Assembly: GCA_963741205.1 (NCBI GenBank)
Contig: CAVUHW010000012.1
Span: 64,001 to 128,000 of the forward strand
DNA: 64,000 nucleotides
Origin: Nitrospirota bacterium
GTDB lineage: Bacteria; Nitrospirota; UBA9217
Direction: 5' to 3'
This document shows positions 23,999 through 45,848 of the stretch, piece after piece; position 1 is the first letter of the stretch; the number at the start of each line of letters is the position of its first letter. The position numbers and the translations under genes were made by a program. The notes under the pieces were generated by a model. The model was given only the letters and a program-made list of their open reading frames with translations, had not been told where the DNA came from and did no database searches.

Positions 23999-25984
23999 TC
24001 ACGCCTTGATCTCAACCGTGCTCCCCTTCTTTGCGAGGTACTCCTTCAAATTCGGGAACTTGTCCTTCATGTGCGGAATATGCATCGCCATCATGAATTC
24101 CCTTTCGAAGGCCGGGTCCGTGGCGATCTCGACGAATTCGACCCAGCGCGCCCGCTCATTCGCCTCTATGCGCTTGCCCCGGTTCAGGAGCGCCATGCGC
24201 GAACCGTCGCCGGCCGCGTTGCCCACGGCGTAGATCTTGTCGAGGGGCAGTCGGGGAACATGCCGAGCGTCAGCGATGCCTCGCGGTCGATGTGGCTCCC
24301 GAAGGCGCCGGCAAGGATAACGCGGTCGAGCTGTGGTGATGCCGAGCTTCTTCATCATGAGCTTCGCGCCCGTGTAGAGCGCGCCCTTGGCGAGCTGGAG
24401 CGCGCGCACGTCGCCCTGGGTGATGGTGATGTCCTGGCCGATGGAGGTCTCCGTTGCCCAGGCGAGGACATACTCGGGCTTGCCGTCGGCGTCCTTCCTG
24501 ACCCGCGGCGTGCCCAGGTCCATCACGAACCTGCCGCTCTTGTCGATGATGCCGGCCTTGAACATCTCGGCGACCACCTGGATGATGCCCGAACCGCAGA
24601 GGCCCTTCGCATCCACCTTCTGGATATGCGTGTGCCAGTCCGCCTTGCCGATGACCTTGTAGCGCGGTTCCTTCGTCGCGGGGTCGATCTCCACGGTCTC
24701 GATGGCGCCGGGGGCCGCCCGCATGCCGAACTTGATCTGGGCGCCCTCGAAGGCCGGTCCGGTGGCGCAGGACGTGGAGCAGACCTTGTCCCGGTTGCCC
24801 ATGAGCAGTTCGCCGTTCGTGCCGATGTCGATGATCAGCACCTTCTCGTCCTGGTTATAGGGTTCCTCGGCGATCAGGACGCCCACGTTGTCGGCGCCCA
24901 CGAAGCCCGCCTCGATGGGCAGCACATGGATGTAGGCGGCGGGATTGATCTGGAGGCCCAGGTCGCGCGCCTTGATGTCGAGCGAGCTCTGGACCGCGGG
25001 GATGAAGGGCGACCGGCCGATGTACTCGGGGTTCAGGCCCAGGAAGATGTGGTGCATGGCCGTGTTGAACACGATCGTGAGGTCGTCGATGACATATCCG
25101 GGGTTCGGCCCGTCCTTGTTGATGTCGCGTCACAACGCGCTCGATGATCTCGTTCAGGCCCTGGATGATCGCTTTCTGCATGGTCTCCAGGCCCACGCCG
25201 GGATTGCTCATGGCATAGGTGATGCGGGACATCACGTCCTCGCCGTAGGGCACCTGGGGGTTCATCATGGACTCGGTGTTCACCACCTTGCCGGTGTTCA
25301 GGTCCGTCAGGTAGCCCACGCAGGTCGTCGTGCCGATGTCCACGGCAAGCCCGTAGCTCTCCTCGACGAACCCCGGCTCCGCCTTGATGATCTCCTTGTC
25401 CATCCAGACGGTGACCGTGGCCTTCCATCCGCCTTTGCGAATCACGTCCTGGAGGTCCTTCAAGACCAGATAATCGAAGGTGAGGCCCTTGAGCCCGTAG
25501 TCGTCCTCAAGGAACTTCAGGACCCGTTCCCAGTCCCCGGTCGTCATGTCGTGGAGCGTGGGAGGGGTGAGCTCGACGTTGTATTTTTTCACGGCCGGAT
25601 CGAGCTTGATCGTGAGCTCTTTGGCCGCCTTCCGGACGACCTGCTTGCCCGCGCGGGAACGCTCGGGCACGAAGACCTTGATGTCGCCCCGGATCTCGCT
25701 CTGGCAGGACAGTCTGATGCCGGGCCCGTCCTGGGGCTTGATGTGCTTCATCTCGTCGGGCGACGGCACGGCAGGGGAGAGTGGGCCATGCCCGAATCGA
25801 TGTTGTCCTTCTCGAAATAGCCTTCTTCGATCCTTACCTTGCACTTTCCGCAGACTTTTTTATTGCCGCAGAGCGCTTCGATATCAACGCCCAGGGCCTG
25901 GGCGGCCTCGAGGATGGTCTTGCCTTCCTCGATCTCGCCGCGCCTGCCCGCAGGCTGAAATATGACCTTGTGTTTCTTAATCAT
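23999..25984 (-). CDS. Reductive activator of corrinoid proteins (RACo/RamA-like, 2Fe-2S plus ASKHA; frameshifted)
   Basis: CGNKKVCGKC..RLSCQ, AVDIGTTT, NPQVPYGEDVMSRI, IDIGTNGE, ATGPAFEGA, GLCGSG. Confidence 0.92.
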
Positions 25985-26051
25985 GCAATTCCTCCTAATA
26001 CTAAATCATGAGAATTCACCACAGAGCACGAGGTAGCGAAAATGAGCGAAC

Positions 26052-26767
26052 TCAGAAGTAAGACACCTTTCTAGATTCGCGCCTCGATTCCGGGCTGATG
26101 TCTCCGTGATCTCCGCGTCTCCTGCTTCGCGATCTTTTTCGCGTTTCTCTTCTCCCATAGGGGCAGATGTTGATGCACAGCCCGCAGTTGGGTTTGCCGT
26201 CCGTGGCCCGCTTGGCCTTCTTATGACTCCTGCAGGCGTCGAGCCTCACGAGCTCCACAAAGGGAAGGGACCGGGACCATTCCGCGCCCGTGATCGCCTT
26301 CGACGGACAGTAGTCCACGCAGAGCGAGCAACTCGCCGCACAGACTGTGTTCGATCGGCGCGTCCGGCTCGAAGCGGCGCGTCGGTCAGCACCGTGCCAG
26401 GGACAGCCGCGGGCCGTAGTCGGGGCTGATGAGGAGCCCGTTCTTCCCGATCCAGCCCAGCCCCGCGGAGGTGGCCGCCATCTTGTGGTTGAACAGCGAG
26501 TAGAGCTTCGAAATGAACGTGCCCTTCTTCCGGTCCGAGTCCGGCGGGATGGCCAGCGTGCGGTACCCCCGGGATTTCAGGAACCGCACGGCGCGCTTCT
26601 GGAGCTTCATGAGGAGGCTCAAGCGTGTCCTCATTCAGCCTGCGGTCCACGCCGATGGACACGGCCTGCTCCAGATGGGCGATCTCGCCGCTCATATGGC
26701 CCCGGAGACCGGCAAACCCGACGACGTCGGCGCCGTGGTCCAGCAGCTCTTTCCTGAGCGAGGTTCT

Positions 26768-26771
<4 letters not shown>
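26052..26771 (-). CDS. QueG/reductive-dehalogenase-like Fe-S protein (frameshifted)
   Basis: HKMAATSAGLGWIGKNGLLISPDYGPRL, CGECSLCVDYCP and CGLCINICP. Confidence 0.75.
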
Positions 26772-27464
<693 letters not shown>

Positions 27465-27468
27465 GGGA

Positions 27469-28496
27469 TTACCTCCTGTAATTTCTGACTTCATCCATCA
27501 TCGCCTTGAAATTTTCGGCCGGCACCGTGGGCCAGATGTCGCACCCGGGCCAGACCGCGCTCACGCCGTCGTCCATGCATTTCTTGACGGTCTGGCGCAC
27601 GAGGTCCGGCGTTCCCGCCACCAGCACATTGTAGGGGTCGTAGTTCCCGAAGACGAGCGCCTTGGGGCCGAGCTTCTTGCGCGTCTCGGCGACGTCGTTC
27701 TTCTGGTCCACGCTGATCGCCTTCGCGCCGCTCTCGGCCATGAAGGGAACGATGTCGTTCGTCTTGCCGCAGATGTGGATCGCGCTCGGCACGGTGATCT
27801 TCTCGAAGATCTTCTTGAGGTAGGGCAGGATGAGGCTCTTGAACACGCGGGGGCAGAGCACGTCGGAAGTCGCGCCCATCTCCCTGACGGTGATGTAGTC
27901 CACGCCGGCCTTCTGGTACTCCCCTGCCACCTGGATGATCACGTCCGTCAGCTGGTCGAGCAATTTCCCGATCTTGTCCGGCTTCTTGAAGGACAGCTTC
28001 AGGAGGTCGTTCAGCTCCATGATCTGGCCCGCGAGCGTGAAGGGACCGAGCACGTAGGAGCCCACGGCCGCCTCGCCGCCGATGTCCTTCTTGATCAGCT
28101 TGATCGCCTCGACCATGAGCGGCACCCTGCCCCGCTTGGTGAGGTCGGACGGGATGGAGAGCTCCATCTCGGCCTCGTTGTGGATCAGCTTTTTCTTGAT
28201 CGTGGGGTACAGCAGGTCCTCGGAATGGGCATACACATTGATCTCGCACCCCATGGCCTCGGCCTCGATGCAGAGGTCGAAGGGCGCGACCGCGCATTCG
28301 AACCCGAACAGCTTGTACGTAGTAGCCGCCGCCGCGGCCATCATCTTTGCGTCAAGGTGCGTTGCCGCGAATTCTGGTTCAGCGATTTCAGCCCCTCGGT
28401 GGTCACGTTGCCCATGCCGCTGAAGCACGGCGGCCGGTCCACTTCCTCGCCGGCGAACATCTTCAGCACCCGTTCTCTTGAATTCATTGTTGTCAT
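27469..28496 (-). CDS. MtaA/CmuA-family methylcobamide:thiol (CoM-type) methyltransferase
   Basis: PFDLCIEAEAMG, GPFTLA, Zn motif HICG..PGCD; N-terminal frameshift (MTTMNSRERVLK). Confidence 0.88.
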
Positions 28497-28630
28497 GCAA
28501 TCTCCTTCCTGATACGAAAATAAAATTTATTGTAAATTGCAGATTGAAAGTTGGAATTACATTTTCAGAGATTCAGTTTTGTAAAATTCAATTTCGAATA
28601 CTCCGCTATTCAATCGGCGTCTGTCAGCGC

Positions 28631-29577
28631 CTACTTTCTCGCTGCTCCCGAGGTCAATTTTCCCAGGAAATCCGAAAAATACTTCTTGATCGGCAGATTG
28701 GGATTGTCCGATATCTTATGCGTCTCGTCATACACCAGCGTGGAAAGCAGGACATGCGCCGCCGCCACTGCCGGGATGATCCGCGGCATCGTTACGATGG
28801 GGCCGCAGAAATTGAAATCGCTCCACAGCGCCGAAGCCATGCCCTGGACCACGGCGTCCATGGCCTTGAACCCGTCGAGGCTCCAGATGGTCTTCGCCTC
28901 CTTCCACATGTGCGTGCCGTTCGAGTAGGCGCCGCCGCAGGGGAGCCCCAGCTTCTCCTTGATCATCCGGTTGGCGACGAGCGAGAACGACGTGGCGGGC
29001 AGGTTCATGACCGAGGTGTCGACGATGACGGTTTCGAAGCTGTCGGCGCCCTGGCGAGGATGTTCTCCAGGGACTTGAGCCGGCCGGCGGGCGACTGGTC
29101 CTGTCGTCGAAGGCCTGTACCACGACGTGCTTGATCCCGAGGTCTTTGAGCTTCTGGACCTGGCCCTTGATGTCCTTGTCCCAGGGGGTGATGCTGTTGT
29201 ACAGGAACTTGTCCTGCAGTCCCAGCTTGGCGACATATTCCGTTGCCTGCGCGCGTTTTTCCGCGACCCACATGTCGATGCCGAAGGGCATGGTCGGTCG
29301 TCTCGCGGTAAAAGTCGATGTAGATCTTCGCCTCTTCCGGCGAGTTGGCGACCATGGCCACCATGGACGGGATGCCGGTGGAGGCCGAAAGCTGCTCCAT
29401 CGTTTTGATGAGTTCCGCGGCCTTCGCGCGGTCGAAATTCCCTTTCCGGTCGGTCACGATCCGGTCCTTGTTGTGGAACATGGACGCGATCTGAAGCGGC
29501 GGATTTTCGCCCGGCTGCCCGCCGACCTTGATCCCGCCAGAGTTGAATGTCTTTTGATCTTTTTTAAATTGAAACAT
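28631..29577 (-). CDS. MtrH/MtgA-family pterin methyltransferase (frameshifted)
   Basis: MFQFKKDQK..GGQPGENP..SMF, PFGID, YNSI, G.PCGGAYSN and GPI motifs. Confidence 0.85.
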
Positions 29578-29669
29578 TTACCGTCCTCGCATTATGCCGC
29601 CATTCCGGACTTGATCGGGGAATGACCGATAAGAATAGTCTGAGCAAGAGAGTAACGAATTATGAGTCC

Positions 29670-29705
29670 AAAAAAACGGGGGAGCCATTCGAAACGCTCC
29701 CCCGT
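29670..29705 (-). terminator. Rho-independent terminator after the CMD-family gene
   Basis: Minus strand ACGGGGGAGC-loop-GCTCCCCCGT followed by a T-tract. Confidence 0.7.
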
Positions 29706-29718
29706 CGATAGTTCATGG

Positions 29719-30161
29719 TTAGAACACGCCGTGGTCGAACTTGGGCTGCGGCAGGTACTCCCACTTCTCGCCCTTGCGGAACTTGGCTTCGATATCGAGG
29801 CACTTCAGGGCATACTCGAAGGCGTAGGGGATGCCGGGTCCGCCGGGCACGAAGCCGCCGAGGATCATGCCGACCGAGGCGGCCTCGAAGATCTCGCCCG
29901 TGGTCGCGCCCGCGTTGATCGCGGGATCACATGGATGATGCAGCGCGGCGAGCAATAGGCGACGCCGCCGGACATGAACATCAGCTCCTTGTACTTGCGG
30001 GAAAGGGCGCCGTCGCCGAAGATGCTCGCGTAGAAATCGGCGAAGGTCCTGCCCGGTTCGGGCGTGACGGTGTTGATGATCTGGAACATGCGGGGAACGA
30101 AACCGCACTGCTTCTTCATGTAGTCGTTCACTTCTTCCAACGTCATTTTCTTGTCAGCCAT
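29719..30161 (-). CDS. Carboxymuconolactone decarboxylase/AhpD-family protein (frameshift)
   Basis: GALSRKYKELM..CSPRCIIHV..GATTGEIFEA. Confidence 0.8.
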
Positions 30162-30282
30162 TTTTGTTCCCTCCCCTTGCCCGGATGCGCTCTGCGCCCG
30201 GGAAAACAGTTTTTTCAACTCCTCCAAAATACCCACTGAATCGACCTCCTTTCACGAAACCGAACCGTATCACCTCCTTCGT

Positions 30283-30472
30283 AACCACAGGCGGCTGCGC
30301 CGCACACGGTAAAGATTAAAACCAGCCCCGACGAAAGCGTTCTGCCCGAGTTATTATTATCGTGTTCATCCGCATGCACCCAGCGATTACGAGTGGCACG
30401 TAACCTGCTCTTGCGAAAGCGCGGCCATAAACGAGTGCGGGGTGTGAGTCACGCGAAGCGGGACCCGTGGTT
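30283..30472. repeat. AACCAC..GTGGTT element, copy 2
   Basis: AACCACAGG-hairpin-ACACGGTAA ... GTGTG-hairpin-CCCGTGGTT. Confidence 0.55.
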
Positions 30473-30476
30473 GCAA

Positions 30477-31529
30477 TCACAGTTTCCACTCCAGCGCCAC
30501 GTCGTGGAACTTCCGGAGATTCTCGTAGGGAATCGTCGGCGGGATGTCGCACCCGGGCACCAGGATGAACCCGCCGTCCTTGCCGGCGACCTCGATGACC
30601 TCGCGGCAGGCCTTCTCCACCCCCGCGACGTCCTGGTTGAGCAACACGTGCACCGGCGCGACGTTGCCCCCGAAGCTCATCTTCCCCTGCAGCGCCTCCT
30701 TGGCCTTGGCGATGTCCACCTTCTGGTCGAAGAAGATCGTGCTCGCCCCCGTGAGCGGGAACAGATCCAGCCGGTCGCTGGTGTTCCCGCAGATGTGCAG
30801 GATCGAGTGCACGCCCTTGCCCTTGGCCCAGCCGGTGAGCTTCTTCAGGCCCGGCACCGCGAAGCGCTCCATCTGCTTCTTGTTGATCAGATCTCCCGAG
30901 GCGGTCGGGTCAGCGATGCTGATGCACTCGAGGCCGTCCTTTACCAGCGGCTCGTAGAGGTGGATCAGCAGGTCGGCGCAGAAATCGACCATCTTCTCGA
31001 CGAACGCCGGCTTCTTGAAGGTCGCCTTCATGAACTGCTCCTCGCCGACGAAGCGCGCCGCAAGGGTGAACGGCCCCCAGCAGGTCATCGTCACGAGGTA
31101 GGTGTCGCCGATCTTCTCCCGGACGCGCCGGGTCGCCTCGAGCACCGTCTGGACGACCGGCTCGCGGTGGACGTCGGCGATGTCGAGCTTCGCCAGGTCC
31201 TCCTCGGAGTTGACGAAGTGGGTGGTCATGTCGGGAGCGCCCATCTCGCGGTACTTGATCCCGACCCCGAAGGCCTTGCCGAGCGCCGAGGCGTGGAAGT
31301 TGTTGAAGCCCGAGCCGACGTAGACGACGTCGCTTCGGATTCGCGCCGCCTCCGCCACGCACATATCGGTCATCTTCTGCGGATCGTGGGCGAGCGCCTC
31401 GAAGGTCGTCCCGAAGTCCTTGATCGACCACATCCCCGCGCCGAAGAGGGTCACGGGAATCCGGTCGCCCTTGCCGCCCTCAAATGCCTTGAGTATCACT
31501 TCCTTCGGTTTCATAGCATCTCCCTTCAT
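30477..31529 (-). CDS. Second MtaA/URO-D-family Zn methyltransferase
   Basis: Intact 350 aa; WGPFTLA, ADPTASG, LHICGN and GFILVPGCD. Confidence 0.88.
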   Translation of the reverse strand: MKGDAMKPKEVILKAFEGGKGDRIPVTLFGAGMWSIKDFGTTFEALAHDPQKMTDMCVAEAARIRSDVVYVGSGFNNFHASALGKAFGVGIKYREMGAPDMTTHFVNSEEDLAKLDIADVHREPVVQTVLEATRRVREKIGDTYLVTMTCWGPFTLAARFVGEEQFMKATFKKPAFVEKMVDFCADLLIHLYEPLVKDGLECISIADPTASGDLINKKQMERFAVPGLKKLTGWAKGKGVHSILHICGNTSDRLDLFPLTGASTIFFDQKVDIAKAKEALQGKMSFGGNVAPVHVLLNQDVAGVEKACREVIEVAGKDGGFILVPGCDIPPTIPYENLRKFHDVALEWKL

Positions 31530-31636
31530 GAATAAAGTAGAATCAAACCTTCAGCCCGCTTGGGGCCGCCATCATTTAATGTAGCACAAATAGAGTTCCT
31601 GCGTGTATGGGCTGACAGCAACGGTCCTAATGGGCT

Positions 31637-31964
31637 TCAGACTGCGATACTGTGGATCGTGTGCTTGAACTCTTCGAGATCAACGGGCGTCTCGACGGAC
31701 GGCACATCCGCATCGACTGCCGCCCCCCACGACGAGCGTGGGCGTGCCCGGCGACACGGCCTTGATGATCTCCACCGCGTCCTCGGCGGACAGGCCGAAG
31801 GGCTCCGAATCGATGATGACGAAATCATATTTCCCGAACAGGACCTTTTGAACGGCGAGGGAGGGATGCTCGACGATTTCCACGTTGTAGCCTTCCTCGC
31901 GAAGGACACAGTAGAGGCTCTTGACCAGAATGGGATTGGAGGAACAGAGAATGATGTTCTTCAT
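31637..31964 (-). CDS. Atypical stand-alone receiver-domain protein (frameshift)
   Basis: Receiver-like fold pattern (IILCS..EGY.V..YDFVIID..P); N-terminal acidic pair absent. Confidence 0.6.
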
Positions 31965-31978
31965 GGCAGGGATTTAAC

Positions 31979-31994
31979 TGCATTTGCGATGCCA
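31979..31994 (-). promoter_or_regulatory. Sigma-54 (-24/-12) promoter
   Basis: Minus strand TGGCATCGCAAATGCA: GG-N10-GC spacing. Confidence 0.6.
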
Positions 31995-32338
31995 GGCAGT
32001 TGAGACGGTCGGTTCCGGCGCAGAAAGAGCAGGTGTGAATTGTTATTCGGGCAGTACCTGAAGATCGCGGTCCGGAGAACTTGTTTCCAGGCAGGATGGA
32101 TTCTCCGGAATTTCAGATAGTTTCCGTCTCTTTTATATATGAGCAGTTCCGGCAGGGCATCAGGGCAGTCGGGACAAGACCCGGCACCGGCAGGCGCGGC
32201 GATTAAGGACATGAATAAGAAACGTGCGGCGTCTGATGAAAAATGCCCCATGATGCGGGGCATTTTTCCTCACGATATCGGAGGAAATGCATAGTCAGGG
32301 GCCGGCATGGCTCGCGGGCTGGTTCCCCTCAATACGAA

Positions 32339-33518
32339 TCAGTCCCTCGAGTGGCACTTGTTGCAGAGTTCCTTCTGGTAGGTGGCAAACCGGGAGCTCG
32401 GCCGGTCATAAAAGGCCCTCTGCGTCTGGGCCGCCGTTCGTCCCTGAGCATATCGCGCGGGCGAGCCATTATCGGTACCCGGGTAAAGGCCTTTATAAAC
32501 GAGGAAAGTCGAGCTCATGTTCCATCTTGTGACCAGAGTCCCAGCCTGATGCATGCGCCCGGTGACAGGTGAGACACATCACCGTGGAATTGGAGTCGGG
32601 CCCCTGGAGATAGCTGCCATCGGTTTTTGCGTGCTGCGCGAGGATAGTTCTGTCATCGGTCCCTTCCTCGAACGGCACCAGGGACGTGTATGAAGTTTCG
32701 CTCCTGCCATTGATGTCTCCGGATTTGACGTATGTGTTGTAATTGGAAATAATCTTCGTGGTAAATCTGGCCTGAGCTCCGGCATGATGTACGTTCCCTG
32801 TTTGACGGTTTGTATGGCAATTCGTGCACCATTCCGCCATGCCCTTGCCGTAGGCGACCCTCGTATCCGTTTGAGCCTCAGGCCTGTTGTAGTCGCGCGG
32901 GGCAACCGCAACGGGCGGATCAACCGTGAAAATCATTCCGGGGACCGAACTTGTTTTATACCCGATGCCGCCGAGCATGCGATAGGCGCTTGCCGCAGCC
33001 GGATCTTTTACGATTTTGCCGTGTGGATCATGGCAACTCGTGCAGGAAAGCCGGTCCGAGGGATAGAGACCGCTCGGCGCCGTTAAATTTGTTCTGTCGG
33101 CCTCATATCCGTAGTCAAGTGCAACGATATTATGTCCGTGACGTTCTCCAAGGCTCCTTTCCGTTTGTCCCAAAAAAGTCCAGGAGTAGGTCACCTTTAA
33201 ATAGCCGAAGTCTCCGCCGGGCGTTAATTGAGAGGGCGGCGCACCTGCCCTGAGATCCTCGGTACTGGTCGCTACGTAAGAACCCGTTGGGATCCTGGTC
33301 CCCACCGGCGCCTGATGGCAGCGTAGGCAGGTAGAGCTTGCGTCAGACCGCTTTCAGGGAAGCGTTCTTATCTGCTATATGACACTCAAGGCACTCGCTG
33401 CTACTGCCCGTATGAAATGGGTCGCCGGGCTGAGATATGCTTCGCCGGGGCTGCACCAACAAATCATGACAAGACAGGTCATGATAGCAATCTCAAATAC
33501 TTTAAAGCCTTTTCCCAT
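32339..33518 (-). CDS. OmcS/OmcT-family hexaheme c-type cytochrome (frameshifted)
   Basis: Six CxxCH motifs (CLECH, CLRCH, CTSCH, CTNCH, CLTCH, CNKCH) plus OmcS-like blocks TPGGDFG, GHNIVA.DY, TRVAYG.GM.EWC, PFEEGT, CHRAHASG. Confidence 0.88.
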
Positions 33519-33810
33519 GCCGAGCCTCTTCATCGCTCCGTGTAGCAGGCCGGCCCTGCGCGGGGCTGCCATGCATCCCGGCGAGACCAACCCACAAAAA
33601 TTAACACCTAGAATATAACACATTTCATCATGGTTTTCCCGAACAATTGAAATGATACTATCATACCGCCAGGGTTATTGCAAACGCCGGGCTGGCGGGG
33701 GTCATCAGCCGAGTTTCTCCCCTTCGCACTCTCGGTGAACTTTTTATTAGAGTACCTGAGAAGGAATCAGAGAAGACCGATCAGCGGATGCGGGCCTGCC
33801 CTGCACAAAT

Positions 33811-33844
33811 AAAAAAGGGAGGAACCTTTCGTTCCTCCCTTTTT
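33811..33844 (-). terminator. Intrinsic terminator (bidirectional shape)
   Basis: AAAAAAGGGAGGAAC-CTTTC-GTTCCTCCCTTTTT. Confidence 0.8.
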
Positions 33845-33866
33845 GTTCTTTGTTCCGAAGCCGCGA

Positions 33867-35102
33867 TTAATGCGCGGATGCCGAAGCCTTTTCCGCCCTC
33901 AGCTTTGCCGCCTCATCCTTGATTTTCTGGAGTGTCTCCTTCATCGGCGCCCAGCCGTACCAGTGCATGTAATCGGGGTTCATGTGGAAGGCCCCCTCGA
34001 AGGCCCGCATCCGGTACTCGAGGAACATTACATAGAGGTCCTGCTCAACGGAGCTCTTTGCCTCGTAGAACTGCAGAAGATCGGGGGCCGTGGTCCAGTC
34101 CGCCGGCTTCGAGAGCACGCCGTCCTTGTACAGGCCCTGCACCACCCTGATCGCCTCGGCCATGACCTTGTCCGCTTCCTTCACCACGAGGTCCGCCTCG
34201 TCGAGCTGTTTTTTCGCATAGCCGGCGCCGTGGCACTTGGCGCAGATCGAGATCATCTTGTCTCGCTCCTTCTGGAACTCTTCCTTGGTAAGCCGGGCGA
34301 CCCTGCCCGCCTTCACGAGGTCGAGCCGGGCCGTGGGATTGCCCTTGTCGTCGAGCACGCCCAGGGCCTGCAGGATCGAGACGCGGTCGTTCAGCCAGTC
34401 TTTGTCGTCCTCAGGCAGACGGAGGGCAAGAAAGCCCCATGAGGTGATCACGTTGTGGTCGCCGCCGCTCATATGGCAGGTCTGGCAGGTGGGCGCGCGT
34501 TTGCTGTCCTTGCCTTCGATCTGCCAGATGGTGCCGTGCTTGGACGTCGACCACATCTCCCACTGGGGATGGTCGAAGCCCATGTGGCAGGTCTGGCAGG
34601 CGCGCGGGTCCTGGGCCTCGGACTTCTTGAAAGAATGCCTGGTGTGGCATGAGTCGCATTGGGCATGGCCGTAGCGGATCTGCGATTTTTCCGTGTCGGA
34701 CTTGGCGCCGATCTTGTGGCAGCTCGAGCAGCCTTTGTATCCCTCGCCGGCAACGGCCCTGGGCTGGTGGCCCATCATGGGCATGGAGCTCGAAGCTATC
34801 CAGGCGAGGTTGTGCTTGCCCGCCTTGAACTGGTCCGCCTGCTTGTTGTGGCAGCGGGCGCAGGTTTCCGGCGTCGGCATCTGCGCGAGTTTCGCGTCGT
34901 CCATCTTCATGTGGGCCGAGCCGTGGCAGGCCGAGCAGTCGATGCCTTTTTTCCCCATCTTTCCCTCGAGGTGCTGCTGTACGATGCCGGGCGTCACCTT
35001 CTTGTGACACTCGACGCAGGCGCTCTGTTTCGGCGCAGCCGACGCTGCCATGCCGAAGAGCAGAACAATACCGAATACGAACAAAATCCTGAGCTGCTTC
35101 AT
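33867..35102 (-). CDS. Octaheme HAO-family cytochrome c
   Basis: Signal peptide, eight CxxCH motifs, CHTRHSF, CHMGFDHPQWE..SKHG and GAFHMNPDY. Confidence 0.88.
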   Translation of the reverse strand: MKQLRILFVFGIVLLFGMAASAAPKQSACVECHKKVTPGIVQQHLEGKMGKKGIDCSACHGSAHMKMDDAKLAQMPTPETCARCHNKQADQFKAGKHNLAWIASSSMPMMGHQPRAVAGEGYKGCSSCHKIGAKSDTEKSQIRYGHAQCDSCHTRHSFKKSEAQDPRACQTCHMGFDHPQWEMWSTSKHGTIWQIEGKDSKRAPTCQTCHMSGGDHNVITSWGFLALRLPEDDKDWLNDRVSILQALGVLDDKGNPTARLDLVKAGRVARLTKEEFQKERDKMISICAKCHGAGYAKKQLDEADLVVKEADKVMAEAIRVVQGLYKDGVLSKPADWTTAPDLLQFYEAKSSVEQDLYVMFLEYRMRAFEGAFHMNPDYMHWYGWAPMKETLQKIKDEAAKLRAEKASASAH

Positions 35103-35422
35103 GCTGTGTTTCCTCCTTTTGGTTTTATGATTTCAATCAAGGCACATAGGGATCAATTCGCGGCGCTTGCATGTCGCAAGCAGCATTAACAGTGTAGCGC
35201 GTTTTTTACCGAACTGCGGGACGGGATGATTTGCATGAACCGTCATACTCTATAGGAAGGCGGACAAAACAGGTATGATACGGATCATATTCCTGAGGGT
35301 TGGTGTTCTGGTTTGGACGGGGGATATTTTTTATATTACATTTTTCCGGTGATGCAGTACAATGTGCATTGAGGCGCCATGGGTGGTGTTGGCGATATCA
35401 TCACTGAGGGGCCGGGGAAGGT

Positions 35423-36464
35423 ATGAAAACGACTGTCGTGTGCGGATTATTGGGTTCAGGAAAGACGACCTTCATCAGGAATTATGTCCGGGGCTTGACC
35501 GGCAGGGTTGTGGTATTGGTCAACGATTTCGGCGCCGCAGGCATCGACGGCGAGATCTTCAGCGCCGGAGGGATCGAGGCAATAGAACTTCCGAGCGGGT
35601 GCGTTTGCTGCACGCTCAGGTTTGATCTCATCACGACAATCAGAAAGATCTCACAGGAGTTCGCGCCGGAACATCTCGTGATCGAACCAAGCGGCGTGGC
35701 CTCGCCTTCATCCGTGCTCGAAGCGCTCGAAGACGCCGGCGCGGGCCCGGCGAGCGTGGTCGGCATCGTCGATGCCGCGGAGTTTACCGAGCTCCAGGAT
35801 TCCGGCATGTACGGCAGCTTTTTCGAGGACCAGCTCAAAAGCTCCGACGTGGTTCTCGTGAACAAAACAGACATTGCTGAAGAAGAGAAGATCAGCGAAA
35901 CCATCCGCCGCATCGAGTCCATCAATCCAAGGGCGATCGTATTGCGCACCGTAAATGCCAAGACGCAGAAGGAATCGCTCCCTCTCCCTGCCGGGGAGAG
36001 GTGCCGGGGTGAGGGGTCCGGCGTTACGACGCGGGCAGGATGATCACTTTCATTTCGAGACACTGTCATTCAGGGTGAATCAGGGTGCGAAGCTTGCCGG
36101 CTTATCAGGCTTTTTTCATGATCTGGCAGCAGGACGATACGGCAACGTAGTGAGGGCAAAAGCGTTGATACAATCGGAAGAGGGCCCTTATCGTTTCGAC
36201 GTTGTTTTTGAGAGGGTTGACAAGATTCGATTCGACAACGATATCGGGGAAAGCAGGGTCGTGGTTATCGGCGAGGGGCTGAATAAACCGGCTATCGAAA
36301 GCGCTCTGCGGGAGGATGGCGTGAGGAGCCGGGAGAAGCAAGCAGCGCTAGCCGGCCGAGGGTCGCCGCTAATCTCTGCCTTTCAGAAAATGCCCATAAT
36401 GAAGCGTCTGGTCCACGATATGGGATTTTATCCTGCTGATTTGCTGTTCTCCCTGATCAGATAA
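35423..36464 (+). CDS. CobW/COG0523 metallochaperone GTPase (frameshift; end uncertain)
   Basis: GLLGSGKTT, GCVCC, IEPSG, NKTD and C-terminal RAK.. Confidence 0.88.
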
Positions 36465-37628
36465 CGGATACATCCCGGCGCCGGTAATATCGCCGATAAA
36501 CAGCACGCCGACGAGCCTTTCACCATCAGGGCTGAATACCACCTTTCGATAGGTTGATCCGGTGGCCCTCACGTGCACTTCATAATCGCTGCCTTGGTAT
36601 GAACAATGCCCATTGAGACAAAAGGCATATCAGCAACCTGAGTGGCATTCATGATCCCGAAGGTGCCGGCATAGGCAGTCTTTGCGCCTGTCATGTTATA
36701 GCCGGCGCATCTGCCCATCTCGACCGCGTTTGTCCAAAGTGCGGTCATTATCCTGTCTCCTGTCACAGGATCAAACGTGACAGCCACATCGCCGGCGGCA
36801 AAGGTATGAGGATTATTACAGGTCGTATATCTGTCCACCACGATGCCCTTGTCTGTTGCTATCCCGCTTCCGGACAGGAAATTGATATTCGGCCTCACCC
36901 CTTTTCCTATACATACCATCTGGCAAGGCATCTCGGACCCGTCGTCAAGGGAAACTCCTGTAACGCCGCTCTTATCTGAAATAATACTCTTGGCGCTGCG
37001 TGCCGGTTATTATCTTCAGCCCTGCCTTATCAAGGGCATGACGGATCAATCCGGCATCTTCGGGTTCCATAAGCTGAGAAAGGACCTCAGGAGAGTAAAC
37101 CACCAGGGTGACCTTTACTCCCAGTTCCAGAAGGGCAAATGCGGCCTTGAGATTGAGAAGTCCTCCTCCCAGCATTACTGCATGGTCAGTGCTTTCAGCC
37201 CTCTTTGCCATGGCCCTGGCATCGCTCAATTTCCGAAGGGCAAATACGCCGTATGCATCTGTTCCTTTTATCTCCGGCGGAATATAGGGGCTGCTGCCGG
37301 TCGCAAAAAGAAGCTTGTCATAGGATAACTGGTCTTTGCCGCTTATACTCACCGATCTCCGCGAGGTATCCACTGAATCAACTGTTGCTCCCGTGCGGAT
37401 CTCGATGCCTTGAGCCGTATAGGGTCCGTTGCCAGAAAGTCCTATGCCCTCTGCCTTCTTTTTACCGGTCACGACATAGGGTATCATTGGCCTGAAATAA
37501 GGCATATCCGGCTCTTCCGACAACACGGTGATAATGCCTTTCGGGTCCTTCTCCCTTATAGCCTGGGCCGCTGCCATCCCGGCAGCGCTGCCGCCTATGA
37601 TCAGGTAATCCGGATAGTCCCTTTTCAT
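36369..37628 (-). CDS. FAD/NAD(P)-dependent oxidoreductase (FNOR; frameshifted)
   Basis: IIGGSAAG, LLFATGSSP, GVRPN and FAAGDVA. Confidence 0.88.
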
Positions 37629-37629
37629 A

Positions 37630-38136
37630 TTACTCCCCTTCGCTGGCAATCATCTTGGAAGCAGCATCTTTTCTGACATCTTTCGAGAATGTCTCTACGG
37701 TCCGGTAAACCAGCGCCTTCGTCGGACATGAACTGACGCAGGCCGGGGTCTCCCTGTCCGGACACCTGTCGCACCGGTATGACTTGTGGGTCTCCAGGTG
37801 ACGGCCGATGACCCCGTACGGGCAGACCATGACGCAGGTCCAGCATCCTATGCATTTATCGGTGTCTGTGATAACGACCCCATCTTTGTTTCGGCTTATT
37901 GCCCCGCTTATGCAGGCATGCATGCAGGGCGCGTCCTCGCAGTGGCGGCATAAGATCGGCACGTTCACGTCGGGTGACACCCATTCCACATAGAGTCTAC
38001 GTTTGGGAGCGGGCTTCTCCTGCAGGGCGCCATAAAGGTTCCCGCTTTTGGAATGCGCGACTGCACAGGAGATCTCGCAGGTTTTGCATGCGGTGCATTT
38101 GCTCGTATTTACAAATATCTCTTTTGGCTCATGCAT
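37630..38136 (-). CDS. cooF: CO dehydrogenase ferredoxin-like subunit CooF
   Basis: Four Cys motifs (CTACKTCEISC, CRHCEDAPC, CIGCWTCVMVCP, CDRC..PACV..CP); directly after cooS. Confidence 0.88.
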   Translation of the reverse strand: MHEPKEIFVNTSKCTACKTCEISCAVAHSKSGNLYGALQEKPAPKRRLYVEWVSPDVNVPILCRHCEDAPCMHACISGAISRNKDGVVITDTDKCIGCWTCVMVCPYGVIGRHLETHKSYRCDRCPDRETPACVSSCPTKALVYRTVETFSKDVRKDAASKMIASEGE

Positions 38137-38256: not shown

Positions 38257-40169
38257 TCACAGCCCCAGACCTTTCCGGCGCTCATCGATTGCACCCAAAA
38301 GTTTATCAGCCGCGGACGTGGGGTCCAGGTCAACAATAAAATACCCGCCGGTAAGCCCCTTCACCTTGTCCGTAAGGATTTCAGTGACCGCCGGGCTGCC
38401 GAGAACGGGCAGCATGACCCCGACATGGGTGGGCAGTCCGGCGGCTACTGCATATACGCCGATGGACACGGCTTTTTCGGATACCGCCTCGGGCGCAGAC
38501 GCAACAACGGGCAGTTTGTCGGTATCCACGCCGAGGTAATTGGCAAGTGCAACGACGATCGCCACGGCGCGCGAGTTGTCAACGCAGGACCCCAGATGCA
38601 GCACCGGGGGAAGCGGGCCGCCCAGCCCGTTTGCTTCTCCTATGGCTGTAAGAACAGCCTTCAGTCCGTCTCCGCACAGCTGGCTGTATTGGCCGGGTCC
38701 ATGAAACCGTGTCTCATCAGCGCGCCGGCGCCGCATCCCGTAGCCACGACGAGAACGTTTTCCTTGAGCAGTTTCTCGGCCATGATCTTGAAGTTCCTGT
38801 CCTGCGGAACCTTGACGTTATTGCATCCGGCAAACAGGCACACGCCCCTGATGTTGCCGTTTTTGATATTATCGACGAGCGGCTTCAGGGGGTCTTTGGC
38901 ATCGACTTTTGCAAGCGCCGCGACTATCGATTCAGTCGAGAAGCCTGCCACGACGTTGCTTTCGACGTTCGGAATGTCAACCGGTTTGCCTTTTCTTTTC
39001 TTGAAGCCTGCGATGGCCGCCCTCACAACCTCTTTGGCCTTTTCAGCAGCAGCCTCTTCCGTAAATTCGATGTGCTCGGCGCCGGTAATCTTGCAGATGT
39101 CCATGGTCGTTATAACTTTCGAGCCCATGCATTCCGCAACGGTCACGAGAGAAGGCATGATGCATTGATAGTCAACGACGATCGCATCGACGGCGCCGGT
39201 CAGAAGGGCCATCTCCTGGCTTACCGAATGCGTGCAGGAAGGAATGGCATGCCGTTCCAGGAGTTCATTTCCCGTACAGCATATGCCCACGACATTTACG
39301 CCTTTGGCCCCGGCGGCAACAGCTTCCTGCTTCATATCTGCGGCAACTGTTACGATCATTTCAGAAAGCACAGGGTTATGCCCGTGGGCGGCGATATTGA
39401 CCATGTCCGCCTTCAGCGTTCCCATATTGGCTTTTGATACCACGGGAGTGGGCGTTCCGAACAGGATATCCGCAAGGTCGGTGCCCATATAGCATCCGGC
39501 AAGGTCTGCAACTCCGCACCTGATGCCGGCGAGAAGCAGATTCACTGCGTCGGCATCTACCCCGTACAGCGTTCGATGCATGATCTCCGAAACCTCTGAG
39601 TCTATTCCCTTCGGCACGGCCCCTATCGCGGAGAGGGCCTTTACGCGGCCCGCGGTCACCACCGTGGCTGCCCATAGTACCGGGGTATCCTTCTCGCCAA
39701 AGTCAGCCAGGGCGGCAGATGCCACATCCTTTGCGATCTCCATATCCTTTCTTCCTTCAACAGGAAGGCCGAGCCGGGTTGCAACTGCCTTCAGCTTTGC
39801 CGGGTCCTTTATTTTGTAATCAGGCGCCTGGCCCTTGGCCATCTTCATCATGGTGTGCGCAAGGTGTTTGGCGTGCCCGGAGTGGGCGGCTGTGCCCGCG
39901 GCAATGGCCCTGTCCAGCCACCGGGCAACCATGACATCGGCAGTACAGCCGCATATGCCCGTCTTCGGCTCCTCCCCGAAAGGATTTATCCTGCAAGGCC
40001 CCTGGAGGCAATTGCGGCAGCAAAGCCCCGTATCACCATAGCCGCATTGAGGGGTCATGGCCTCGTACCGGTCCCATACCGTTGTTATCCCCTTCTCCTT
40101 CGCCTTCGCGATCATCTGCTGGACAGCAGGATCAAGGCTCTTGCTCTCAAATGACTTGTCGGCTGACAT
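38257..40169 (-). CDS. cooS: Anaerobic Ni,Fe carbon monoxide dehydrogenase catalytic subunit (frameshift near 38690)
   Basis: PQC..GLCCRNCLQGPCRI..GICG; C-cluster ligands GHNP, CCTG, DYQC, AGCN, TGCG, GSCVDN; SEKA. Confidence 0.96.
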
Positions 40170-40515
40170 GACGACCTCCTTTTTATTTATCAGATAGATC
40201 TGGCATATAAAAATGTTTTTAGTTAAGGGATGCTGGTATGAAAAGCAGCGTGATACAACCGATATATCCACTCTTGAACAATTAGACAACGATCCCGGGA
40301 GCGGCTATCGGTCGATCATCGGAAAGATGAAATCCCTGGTTGGACGAAACCTCTTGCTAAGAACAGGAGGTTAATATGACTTGTGTAAATGGTAGCAGAT
40401 TATAGCAGTTTTGTCGACTGCAAAGAGAGATTCGCGGTTCGACGAATACTTGATAACTAGTCCTTAGGTTTTATGAAAGTGCATACGGTTATTTTCTCAT
40501 GTCGACCTCCTGTAA

Positions 40516-44343: not shown

Positions 44344-45690
44344 TCAGGAACTGATGCCGTATTTCTTCAATTTCAGGTAGAGGGTCTTGCGGTCGATGCC
44401 CAGAAGCTGGCTCGCCTTTGACTGGTTGCCGCCAGCTTCCTTGAGGACCCGGAGGATGTAGTTCTTTTCCATCTCTTCGAGGGAAGGGTTGACGCTCATG
44501 TCCGCGACCGCGTCGTAGGAGGAGATGGAGAGGTCTTCGGCCCCGATGGTGCCGGATTCGCAGACGATCACCGCCCGTTCGATCACGTTCTCAAGCTCCC
44601 GCACGTTTCCCGGCCAGCGGTATGCCGAGAGGAGTTCCAGGGCCTCGGCGGTGAAGTCCGTGATGGGCTTGGCCAGCTTCTTCGCGTACTTCGCGAGGAA
44701 ATGGCGCGCAAGCTCGGCGATGTCCTCCCTCCGCTCCCGGAGCGGCGGGATGGCGATGTTGATCACGTTCAGCCGGTAGTAGAGGTCTTCGCGGAAGGCC
44801 CCGGTCTTGATCACGGCCGAGAGGTCCTTGTTCGTGGCGGCGATCACGCGCACGTCCACGCGGAGGTTCTTGTTGCCTCCCACGCGCCGGAACTCGCCGG
44901 AATCGAGGAACCTGAGGAGCTTCGCCTGCAGCCCGATGGGCATCTCGCCGATCTCGTCCAGAAAGAGCGTACCCTTGTCGGCGACCTCCACGAGGCCGTG
45001 CTTGGTCTGAAAGGCGCTGGTAAATGCGCCTTTCTCGTGGCCGAAGATCTCGGACTCGATGAGGTTTTCCGAGAGCGCCGCGCAGTTCAGGGCGATGATG
45101 GGCATGTCCTTCCGTTTGCTGTAATGCCAGACCGTGTTCGCGACGAGCTCCTTGCCGGTCCCGCTCTCGCCCTGGATGAAGACCGGCGAGTCCGTGGGCC
45201 CCACCTTCTGGATGAGCGCGAGGATCTCCTGGACCTGCCTGCTCCTGCCGATGAATTCGAAGGGCGATTCCTGCCTGACCAGCTCCTGTTCGAGGAGCTT
45301 GCTCTTGACGGAAAGCCTGCTGAACTCATAGGCCCGGTCGACGACGATCACGAGCTCGTCGAGCTTGTAGGGCTTGGTGAGGTAGTCGAAGGCGCCGTTT
45401 TTCATGGCCTCCACGGCGGTCTCCACCGTTGCCTTGCCCGTGAGCACGATGATCGCGGGGGCCCCCGAGTCCTCCTTCAGCTTCTTCATGAGCGAGATCC
45501 CGTCCACCCCGGGCATGACGACGTCCAGGAGGATCACGTCGAAGGAGCGGTCGCGCAGAAGCCGCAGGGCCTCGCTCCCGTCGGGGGCGACTTCGACGGC
45601 GTATCCCTTGCGGGTCAGTTCTTTTTTCAGGAGCCTTCTGAAGGGCTCTTCGTCGTCCACGACGAGAATGTTGATCATAGATATCGACAC
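44344..45690 (-). CDS. NtrC-family sigma-54 response regulator
   Basis: Receiver domain, GESGTGKE, GAFTSA, LFLDEIG, WPGNVREL and Fis HTH. Confidence 0.95.
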   Translation of the reverse strand: MSISMINILVVDDEEPFRRLLKKELTRKGYAVEVAPDGSEALRLLRDRSFDVILLDVVMPGVDGISLMKKLKEDSGAPAIIVLTGKATVETAVEAMKNGAFDYLTKPYKLDELVIVVDRAYEFSRLSVKSKLLEQELVRQESPFEFIGRSRQVQEILALIQKVGPTDSPVFIQGESGTGKELVANTVWHYSKRKDMPIIALNCAALSENLIESEIFGHEKGAFTSAFQTKHGLVEVADKGTLFLDEIGEMPIGLQAKLLRFLDSGEFRRVGGNKNLRVDVRVIAATNKDLSAVIKTGAFREDLYYRLNVINIAIPPLRERREDIAELARHFLAKYAKKLAKPITDFTAEALELLSAYRWPGNVRELENVIERAVIVCESGTIGAEDLSISSYDAVADMSVNPSLEEMEKNYILRVLKEAGGNQSKASQLLGIDRKTLYLKLKKYGISS

Positions 45691-45848
45691 TGACCACTCC
45701 GAAATGACAGATATCGGATCTGACAGGCTAACTACGGATAACTCGATTATTCAACGGGACCTTTACTGATCGAATGCGTTTGCAAGCTCTGTCATTCGGT
45801 ATTGTATCTCGTAAACGCTGGATTCAGTCAGTGATGACGTGTCGGTTT

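Follow-up and report, generated by a model that had tools for sequence, protein, structure and literature searches.

The window, by which we mean the whole 64,000-nucleotide stretch of DNA analysed here, comes from a Nitrospirota bacterium and carries a gene for a secreted c-type cytochrome with six haems that belongs to the OmcS family. This gene has no codon for His16, the residue that Wang et al. are said to have identified in 2019 as the one donated in trans to haem 5 of the neighbouring OmcS subunit. Taken singly, the gene adds one member to a known family; what may be new is the pattern of the clade in which it sits, where His16 and the arm that carries it are lost, the first His of an ERHGH motif is kept and osc-type neighbours are missing. 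A literature search, whose scope did not extend to Shen et al. 2025 and the supplements, found no description of this clade-level pattern. With moderate confidence, and on the evidence of the sequence, we read the product as an electron-transfer cytochrome whose six haems would all be bis-His ligated in cis, which would not be cross-linked through His16 and is probably non-filamentous, and whose gene appears broken through errors of assembly.

Organization of the gene

The gene is readable only by joining four frame pieces. The positions of the breaks between them were set by tblastn with the closest intact relative (P0001), together with direct inspection, and the parts of the locus are as follows, in the direction of reading.

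33812..33844, no strand assigned: two-way terminator-like hairpin, between the octahaem cytochrome gene (upstream) and the window gene
32339..33518, minus strand: OmcS-family hexahaem cytochrome gene as a whole (start codon ATG at 33518, stop codon at 32339-32341), with three frame breaks crossed
33435..33518, minus strand: frame piece 1, a Sec-type signal peptide (MGKGFKVF...SPGEAY), collinear with the N terminus of the intact P0001
33433..33434, minus strand: frame break 1, two bases at the GEAY / QPGDP junction, which amounts to the loss of one base or the gain of two
33349..33432, minus strand: frame piece 2, the mature N terminus, which holds the FH motif (33406-33417) and the first haem motif, CLECH (33379-33393)
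33330..33378, minus strand: loop between haem motifs 1 and 2, 49 nt, or 16 codons and one extra base
33348, minus strand: frame break 2, one extra base at the SLKA / SDASS junction
32532..33347, minus strand: frame piece 3, the core, which contains haem motifs 2-5 at 33315-33329, 33030-33044, 32814-32828 and 32562-32576
33138..33140, minus strand: first His of ERHGH, at the OmcS Lys108 column, a candidate cis stand-in for the His16 ligand
32528..32531, minus strand: frame break 3, at the WDSG / RWNMS junction, four bases where one codon is expected
32342..32527, minus strand: frame piece 4, the C-terminal part, with haem motif 6, CNKCH (32351-32365)
32241..32265, minus strand: terminator-like hairpin about 75 nt 3' of the stop codon, -23.7 kcal/mol for a 59-nt stretch (z -4.6)

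The six CXXCH motifs read, in order, CLECH, CLRCH, CTSCH, CTNCH, CLTCH and CNKCH, and the mature product is about 360 residues long. The initial annotation had joined the second and third pieces as K-GSD, which proved slightly off: the actual order is SLKA, one extra base and then SDASS. A reading of the signal-peptide junction as a tandem duplication was dropped, as the intact P0001 shows the same SPG...QPG pattern. Because terminator-like hairpins stand on both sides of the gene (33812-33844 and 32241-32265), the window gene seems to be transcribed on its own, as a single-gene unit; the hairpin at 32241-32265 is absent from the output of a simple terminator scan. An Rfam scan of 31500-35500 matched no family, and therefore gave no cyclic-dinucleotide riboswitch upstream of the window gene.

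Membership in the OmcS family

The earlier view of the gene as a collinear OmcS homologue was borne out by each of the longer comparisons. The 270-aa core matched OmcS (PDB 6ef8_A) at an E value of 1.5e-75, the C-terminal piece matched OmcS residues 342-407 at 1.2e-7, and an intact orthologue from the same genus matched OmcS at 4.9e-97. Searched by itself against PDB sequences, the N-terminal piece of 39 aa was too short to score and returned no OmcS match, while Pfam and NCBIfam contained no OmcS-specific model and the window gene matched only their generic CXXCH domains. The six CXXCH motifs in OmcS order, the signal peptide and the N-terminal FH are all present over the four frame pieces, and so are the conserved cis axial His columns FH, GH(N), CHDPH, GHP/HH and CHRAH. 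Indeed, the window gene has His at every His column that is invariant in both the His16-bearing and the His16-less groups of relatives described below. The source, a Nitrospirota bacterium, also agrees with the proposal that the host was not Geobacter.

Frame breaks in the gene

It is quite probable that the three frame breaks are assembly errors, because the whole assembly is full of similar breaks, mostly one-base insertions. To survey such frame changes, nine stretches of 20 kb were taken from a complete genome of the same genus (G002), and their ORFs of 250 aa or longer were compared by tblastn with the genome that contains the window (G000). An orthologue at 55% identity or more was found for 47 ORFs, and frame changes were present in 21 of these 47. 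Altogether there were 33 frame changes in 20,652 aligned residues, which corresponds to 0.53 per kb in the conserved genes of G000. Under stricter pairing, frame changes of the +1 type made up 20 of 25 and those of the -1 type 5 of 25, and the window's own contig gave 0.39 frame changes per kb. The window gene has two +1 breaks and one that is -1 (or +2).

The alternative, that the gene is a true pseudogene in this strain with at least one real frame break, is unlikely; the His16-less reading would then apply to the intact relatives only. It draws on the number of breaks, three in 1.18 kb, which exceeds the rate of the contig (Poisson P about 0.01-0.05 for three or more at a local rate of 0.39-0.67 per kb), and on the deposited gene call at the locus, which is a 161-aa fragment only (P0030). 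Against it, the signature is alike genome-wide, with 21 of 47 conserved genes broken and +1 shifts dominant, and other sampled genes of G000 exist with three or four breaks. Moreover, the four pieces contain no in-frame stops and retain all haem motifs and conserved His, no haem or His codon having been lost, and the read-through sequence is 83% identical to the intact P0001 over 328 columns. Any 'broken gene' found in the G000 genome should be read against a background of about 0.5 frame changes per kb. Two neighbours of the window gene are each split over two frames, namely a CobW gene (35423-36040 with 35955-36461, plus strand) and a gene for a pyridine-nucleotide-disulphide oxidoreductase (Pyr_redox_2; 36572-37006 with 36975-37649, minus strand).

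Loss of His16 and of the long N-terminal loop

The absence of His16 and of the long N-terminal loop from the window gene is genuine. As the initial annotation had claimed, there is no His codon between the first two haem motifs: neither CAT nor CAC occurs in any frame of the 49 nt at 33330-33378. The loop is also, as claimed there, much shorter than in OmcS, with 16 codons and one base against about 34 residues. Residues 12-16 of OmcS read CHTMH, and at the place of His16 the window gene has Asp, three residues past the motif-1 His. Neither the loss of His16 nor the short loop is an artefact, because both are seen in intact relatives at 64-79% identity: the same-genus orthologues L002 (391 aa, 65%) and L003 (388 aa, 64%) have the same His-free loop of 15-16 residues, and so has P0001 (79%). 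A His16-type His and a long arm are two features of OmcS-type nanowires, and the window gene has neither. A further remark concerned SYHIST of OmcS, whose His is indeed paired with Tyr in the HMMER alignment. This detail carries no weight: just 51 of 106 His16-bearing relatives have His at that column, which was rejected as a ligand column.

A clade of OmcS-family proteins without His16

Within the family as a whole, His16 is the rule, and its loss is a minority but recurrent state. Among the 120 best database relatives of the window gene, 94 were full-length with at least six motifs, and 71 of these 94 lacked His16 while 23 had it. A search of the whole library yielded representatives at 50% identity, of which 149 of the 150 listed sequences were fetched and 90 parsed. 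CHxxH was kept in 83 of these 90 and missing in seven, one of which (P0184) is probably mis-parsed. A FastTree tree was then calculated from 250 distinct full-length sequences, with the N-terminal region that defines the trait left out; this set, which is biased towards the relatives of the window gene, comprises 106 His16-less and 144 His16-bearing sequences. The window gene falls inside a starred clade of 72 rows, all 72 of which are His16-less, and the best tree has 11 changes of the His16 state, at least four of them forced by starred branches.

The His16-less proteins are shorter in more than one place. Between haem motifs 1 and 2, the median length of the loop is 15 residues in the 106 His16-less sequences against 33 in the 144 His16-bearing ones, and the median mature lengths are 362 and 407, respectively. 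The distance from haem motif 3 to YRxLGG is 12 residues in the window gene, with a median of 12 in 101 His16-less sequences against 40 in 112 His16-bearing ones. Some His16-less variants have seven haems, with an extra CXXCH in an N-terminal extension ahead of the FH motif (P0008, P0012, P0018, P0031, P0033, P0040, P0041, P0051, P0054 and others; loci L040, L041, L045 and L046); no extra conserved His matching the seventh haem was seen in these variants.

The hosts of His16-less genes include Nitrospirota, metagenome-assembled genomes of Syntrophales, Desulfobulbaceae and Desulfurivibrionaceae, and Geobacteraceae. Cultured carriers are Geomonas diazotrophica, Geomonas limicola and Citrifermentans bremense, the Geomonas and Citrifermentans loci being L042, L044, L061 and L069. 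Because Geobacteraceae also carry His16-less genes, the trait is not the mark of a lineage outside Geobacter. What had been taken for a single odd variant of such a lineage is instead part of a large natural clade, Geobacteraceae included.

A candidate ligand for haem 5 in cis

According to Filman et al. (bioRxiv 10.1101/492645), OmcS has 12 axial ligands, every one a His; the fifth haem takes one of them from the adjoining subunit, and the other 11 are supplied within the subunit. A review (PMC12307469) and the OmcZ preprint (10.1101/2022.07.17.500359) likewise give one fifth-haem His from the neighbouring subunit for OmcS and OmcE alike. In the His16-less group we found twelve invariant His columns, six in CXXCH motifs and six others, and eleven of these twelve are invariant in the His16-bearing group too. 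The remaining column, that of OmcS Lys108, holds the first His of ERHGH. It is His in 112 of 144 His16-bearing sequences and in 106 of 106 His16-less ones, a count that overstates their independence, as the latter amount to between four (by starred branches) and 11 lineages. The other 32 His16-bearing sequences have, at this column, R (12), K (4), N (4), G (3), F (3), A (2), L (2), S (1) or a gap (1).

On the tree, the Lys108 column changes 21 times. None of these changes falls in the His16-less lineages, which span 24 length units and in which 6.5 are expected, giving a P value of about 0.0014 under a uniform-rate Poisson model. A paired-lineage test of His16 against the ERHGH His comprised only four supported pairs. 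Nor is the ERHGH His specific to the loss of His16, since 78% of His16-bearing proteins carry it as well: OmcS has His16 but no ERHGH His, the window clade has the ERHGH His but no His16, and many proteins have both. An AlphaFold2 prediction for the intact orthologue, made with a 21-row alignment, had a mean pLDDT of 35.6 and was set aside.

Because twelve invariant His are available for six haems, we infer that haem 5 is completed in cis, with the first His of ERHGH as its sixth ligand when His16 is absent. The initial annotation had listed another His in the vacant site among the grounds that would refute it and, as a matter of arithmetic, the ERHGH His would fill that site.

Gene neighbourhood

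ORFs within 6 kb of 79 loci were clustered and the clusters named by Pfam; 76 loci could be parsed, 42 of them His16-bearing and 34 His16-less. The typical order at His16-bearing loci, those of the window's genus included, is omcS, an NHL propeller, a YncE-type propeller, a protein of about 740 aa without a Pfam match, and LpoB-like lipoproteins. The YncE-type, ~740-aa and LpoB-like families, which we provisionally equate with OscD, OscE and OscF/G of the omcS-companion (osc) cluster, occur at 25, 25 and 18 of the 42 His16-bearing loci, respectively, and within 6 kb of none of the 34 His16-less loci. NCBIfam holds no model for the OscD-G families. Roles of OscE-G in secretion, of OscH in folding and of OscD in morphology are given in a report (PMC13194489) that cites Shen et al. 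2025.

Other neighbours are shared by the two kinds of locus, such as the NHL propeller (28 of 42 His16-bearing and 15 of 34 His16-less loci) and a PPIase (4 of 42 and 6 of 34). One or two HAMP-domain genes of about 190-215 aa, mostly divergent, lie directly upstream at 11 His16-less loci (L031-L034, L036, L037, L039-L041, L045 and L046) and at no His16-bearing locus. The window contains neither a HAMP-domain gene pair nor OscD-G-like genes. A further neighbour cluster, 'family 10', was discarded as an antisense shadow ORF of the omcS genes.

Across the 40 relatives, the OscE-like family is found in exactly the eight genomes that have OmcS-family genes (G003, G004, G007, G008, G011, G014, G016 and G024). 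In all eight it lies on the same contig as an OmcS-family gene, 1-10 kb from the nearest one. G000, which is 84% complete, is the sole genome with an OmcS-family gene in which the OscE-like alignment search had no match; an OscE-like HMM likewise had no hit in G000, and an LpoB-like HMM had one hit of 24 bits. The initial annotation had suggested looking for His16-bearing paralogues in the genome, and no second OmcS-family gene was found in the 84%-complete G000 by protein search or by a six-frame family HMM. Because the genome is 84% complete, any Osc genes and canonical OmcS could have been missed, having stayed unassembled. In two genomes of the same genus the orthologue is not far from canonical omcS/osc genes, with a distance of about 9 kb in G003 and of 28-47 kb in G011, and there a role beside canonical wires is possible.

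Several other genes of the region may be recorded here. Directly upstream of the window gene is an intact octahaem cytochrome gene (33867-35102, minus strand, 411 aa, eight CXXCH) of the HAO/hydrazine-dehydrogenase type (PF13447, E 2e-26), which is not a conserved neighbour of the His16-less clade at other loci. The stretch at about 24858-31529 (minus strand) holds a set of the corrinoid methyltransferase type, with a RACo-like activator, a 4Fe-4S protein, two URO-D/MtaA-like proteins and one MtrH-like protein. Further on, 38664-40304 encodes a hybrid-cluster (prismane) protein, and the gene for a sigma-54 response regulator lies at 44347-45750. Outside the window, contigs C46, C47 and C28 of G000 carry clusters of paired-CXXCH multihaem cytochromes together with TPR/PMT2-type and NHL-propeller genes; these families flank His16-less omcS-like genes in other genomes and are on separate contigs in G000.

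Discussion

The subfamily has lost the N-terminal arm of about 20 residues that carries His16 in OmcS, and also a segment of about 26 residues after haem motif 3. In the reading that we prefer, the first His of ERHGH would take the place of His16 at haem 5. All six haems would then be bis-His ligated inside one polypeptide, and the product would work in electron transfer rather than as a canonical nanowire of the OmcS type assembled with Osc proteins. Two descriptions in the initial annotation, 'differently ligated' and 'non-polymerising', fit these findings: haem 5 could be completed in cis by the additional, invariant His, and there are no osc-type genes nearby.

The loss of His16 alone does not exclude filaments, because OmcZ polymerises without an inter-subunit His (10.1101/2022.07.17.500359). 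It is thus conceivable, if unlikely in our judgement, that the window protein forms filaments through protein contacts and haem stacking only, with haem 5 completed in cis. The precedent of OmcZ, which makes filaments with all haems ligated within the subunit, speaks for such an arrangement, as do the conservation of haem motifs 1 and 6 and of FH, which form the stacked interface pair in OmcS, and the NHL-propeller and PPIase genes found at both kinds of locus. Yet the arm and the segment after haem motif 3 are both deleted, OscD-G-like genes are lacking at all 34 His16-less loci with none found in G000 apart from the 24-bit LpoB-like hit (84% complete), and the extra N-terminal haem domain of some members of the clade would sit just at an OmcS-type interface.

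We consider it improbable that haem 5 is five-coordinate or has a sixth ligand other than His, for instance Met, which would make it a reactive or ligand-binding haem and the protein an enzyme or a sensor. The arm region is indeed without His, the Met of the WNM motif is commoner in His16-less than in His16-bearing sequences (76% against 20%), and a gene for a cytochrome of the octahaem HAO type adjoins the window gene. Among His16-less proteins, however, the ERHGH His never varies but the WNM Met does, and the HAO-like gene is set apart by a terminator-like hairpin and does not recur beside His16-less genes at other loci. The last of the readings once offered, that of a 'capping' variant, turned out to be the weakest: an end subunit (cap, base or adaptor) of canonical OmcS filaments, accepting a His16 arm at its own haem 5 and donating none, so as to close the filament at one end, is very improbable. 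In its favour, the G003 orthologue lies near a canonical gene that has His16 and is flanked by NHL and YncE-type genes, and the G011 orthologue is on one contig with canonical paralogues and an OscE-like gene. Against it, no canonical OmcS to be capped and no OscE-like gene were found in G000 (84% complete), so strict a retention of the ERHGH His would be unexpected if haem 5 awaited a foreign His, and the clade has neighbours of its own, with the HAMP-domain pair at 11 loci, rather than osc genes.

The ERHGH His, which is kept wherever His16 is lost, offers a concrete idea of how haem 5 is completed, and it may also bear on how OmcS subunits avoid polymerising before export. One could go further and suppose that this His is the built-in haem 5 ligand of unassembled subunits throughout the OmcS family, so that polymerisation would be a ligand swap, with this His displaced by His16 of the arriving subunit, and the members of the His16-less clade, the window protein among them, would be obligate monomers fixed in the state that precedes assembly. 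We regard this extension as speculative and rather unlikely. If true, the presence or absence of CHxxH and of the ERHGH His would provide a rule to tell the OmcS homologues that can form nanowires.

Surveys take OmcS homologues as a sign that cytochrome nanowires are widespread, and in one of them (PMC10954620) homologues were accepted at an E value below 1e-5 and a coverage above 75%. The present work reveals a sizeable branch of OmcS homologues without the subunit-linking His, the arm or the adjacent export and assembly genes, which accounts for 7 of the 90 representatives and for 106 of 250 sequences in the biased set. If His16-less proteins are non-polymerising, such surveys would overcount wire-formers, chiefly among the Nitrospirota and the paralogues of Geobacteraceae.

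It is instructive to compare the window gene with the systems already known. With OmcS itself (GSU2504 of Geobacter sulfurreducens, PDB 6EF8/6NEF) it is collinear over the whole mature length, and the two have in common the same order of six CXXCH, the FH after the Sec signal and eleven conserved axial-His columns. The loop between haem motifs 1 and 2 has about 34 residues in OmcS but 16 in the window gene, which also lacks the segment of about 26 residues after haem motif 3 and has His at the column of OmcS Lys108. The osc cluster (OscD-G) is a module that stands beside canonical His16-bearing genes, whereas it is absent from the 34 His16-less loci and, apart from the 24-bit LpoB-like hit, from our searches of G000. 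OmcZ (GSU2076), an octahaem nanowire, has all its haems ligated within the subunit, just as we infer for the window protein, yet its fold and sequence are unrelated; OmcZ is known to polymerise, which the window protein probably does not. The minor members of the OmcS family, which are not the main subunit of the wire, belong to the same family as the window gene, and cultured Geobacteraceae (Geomonas, Citrifermentans) carry His16-less paralogues.
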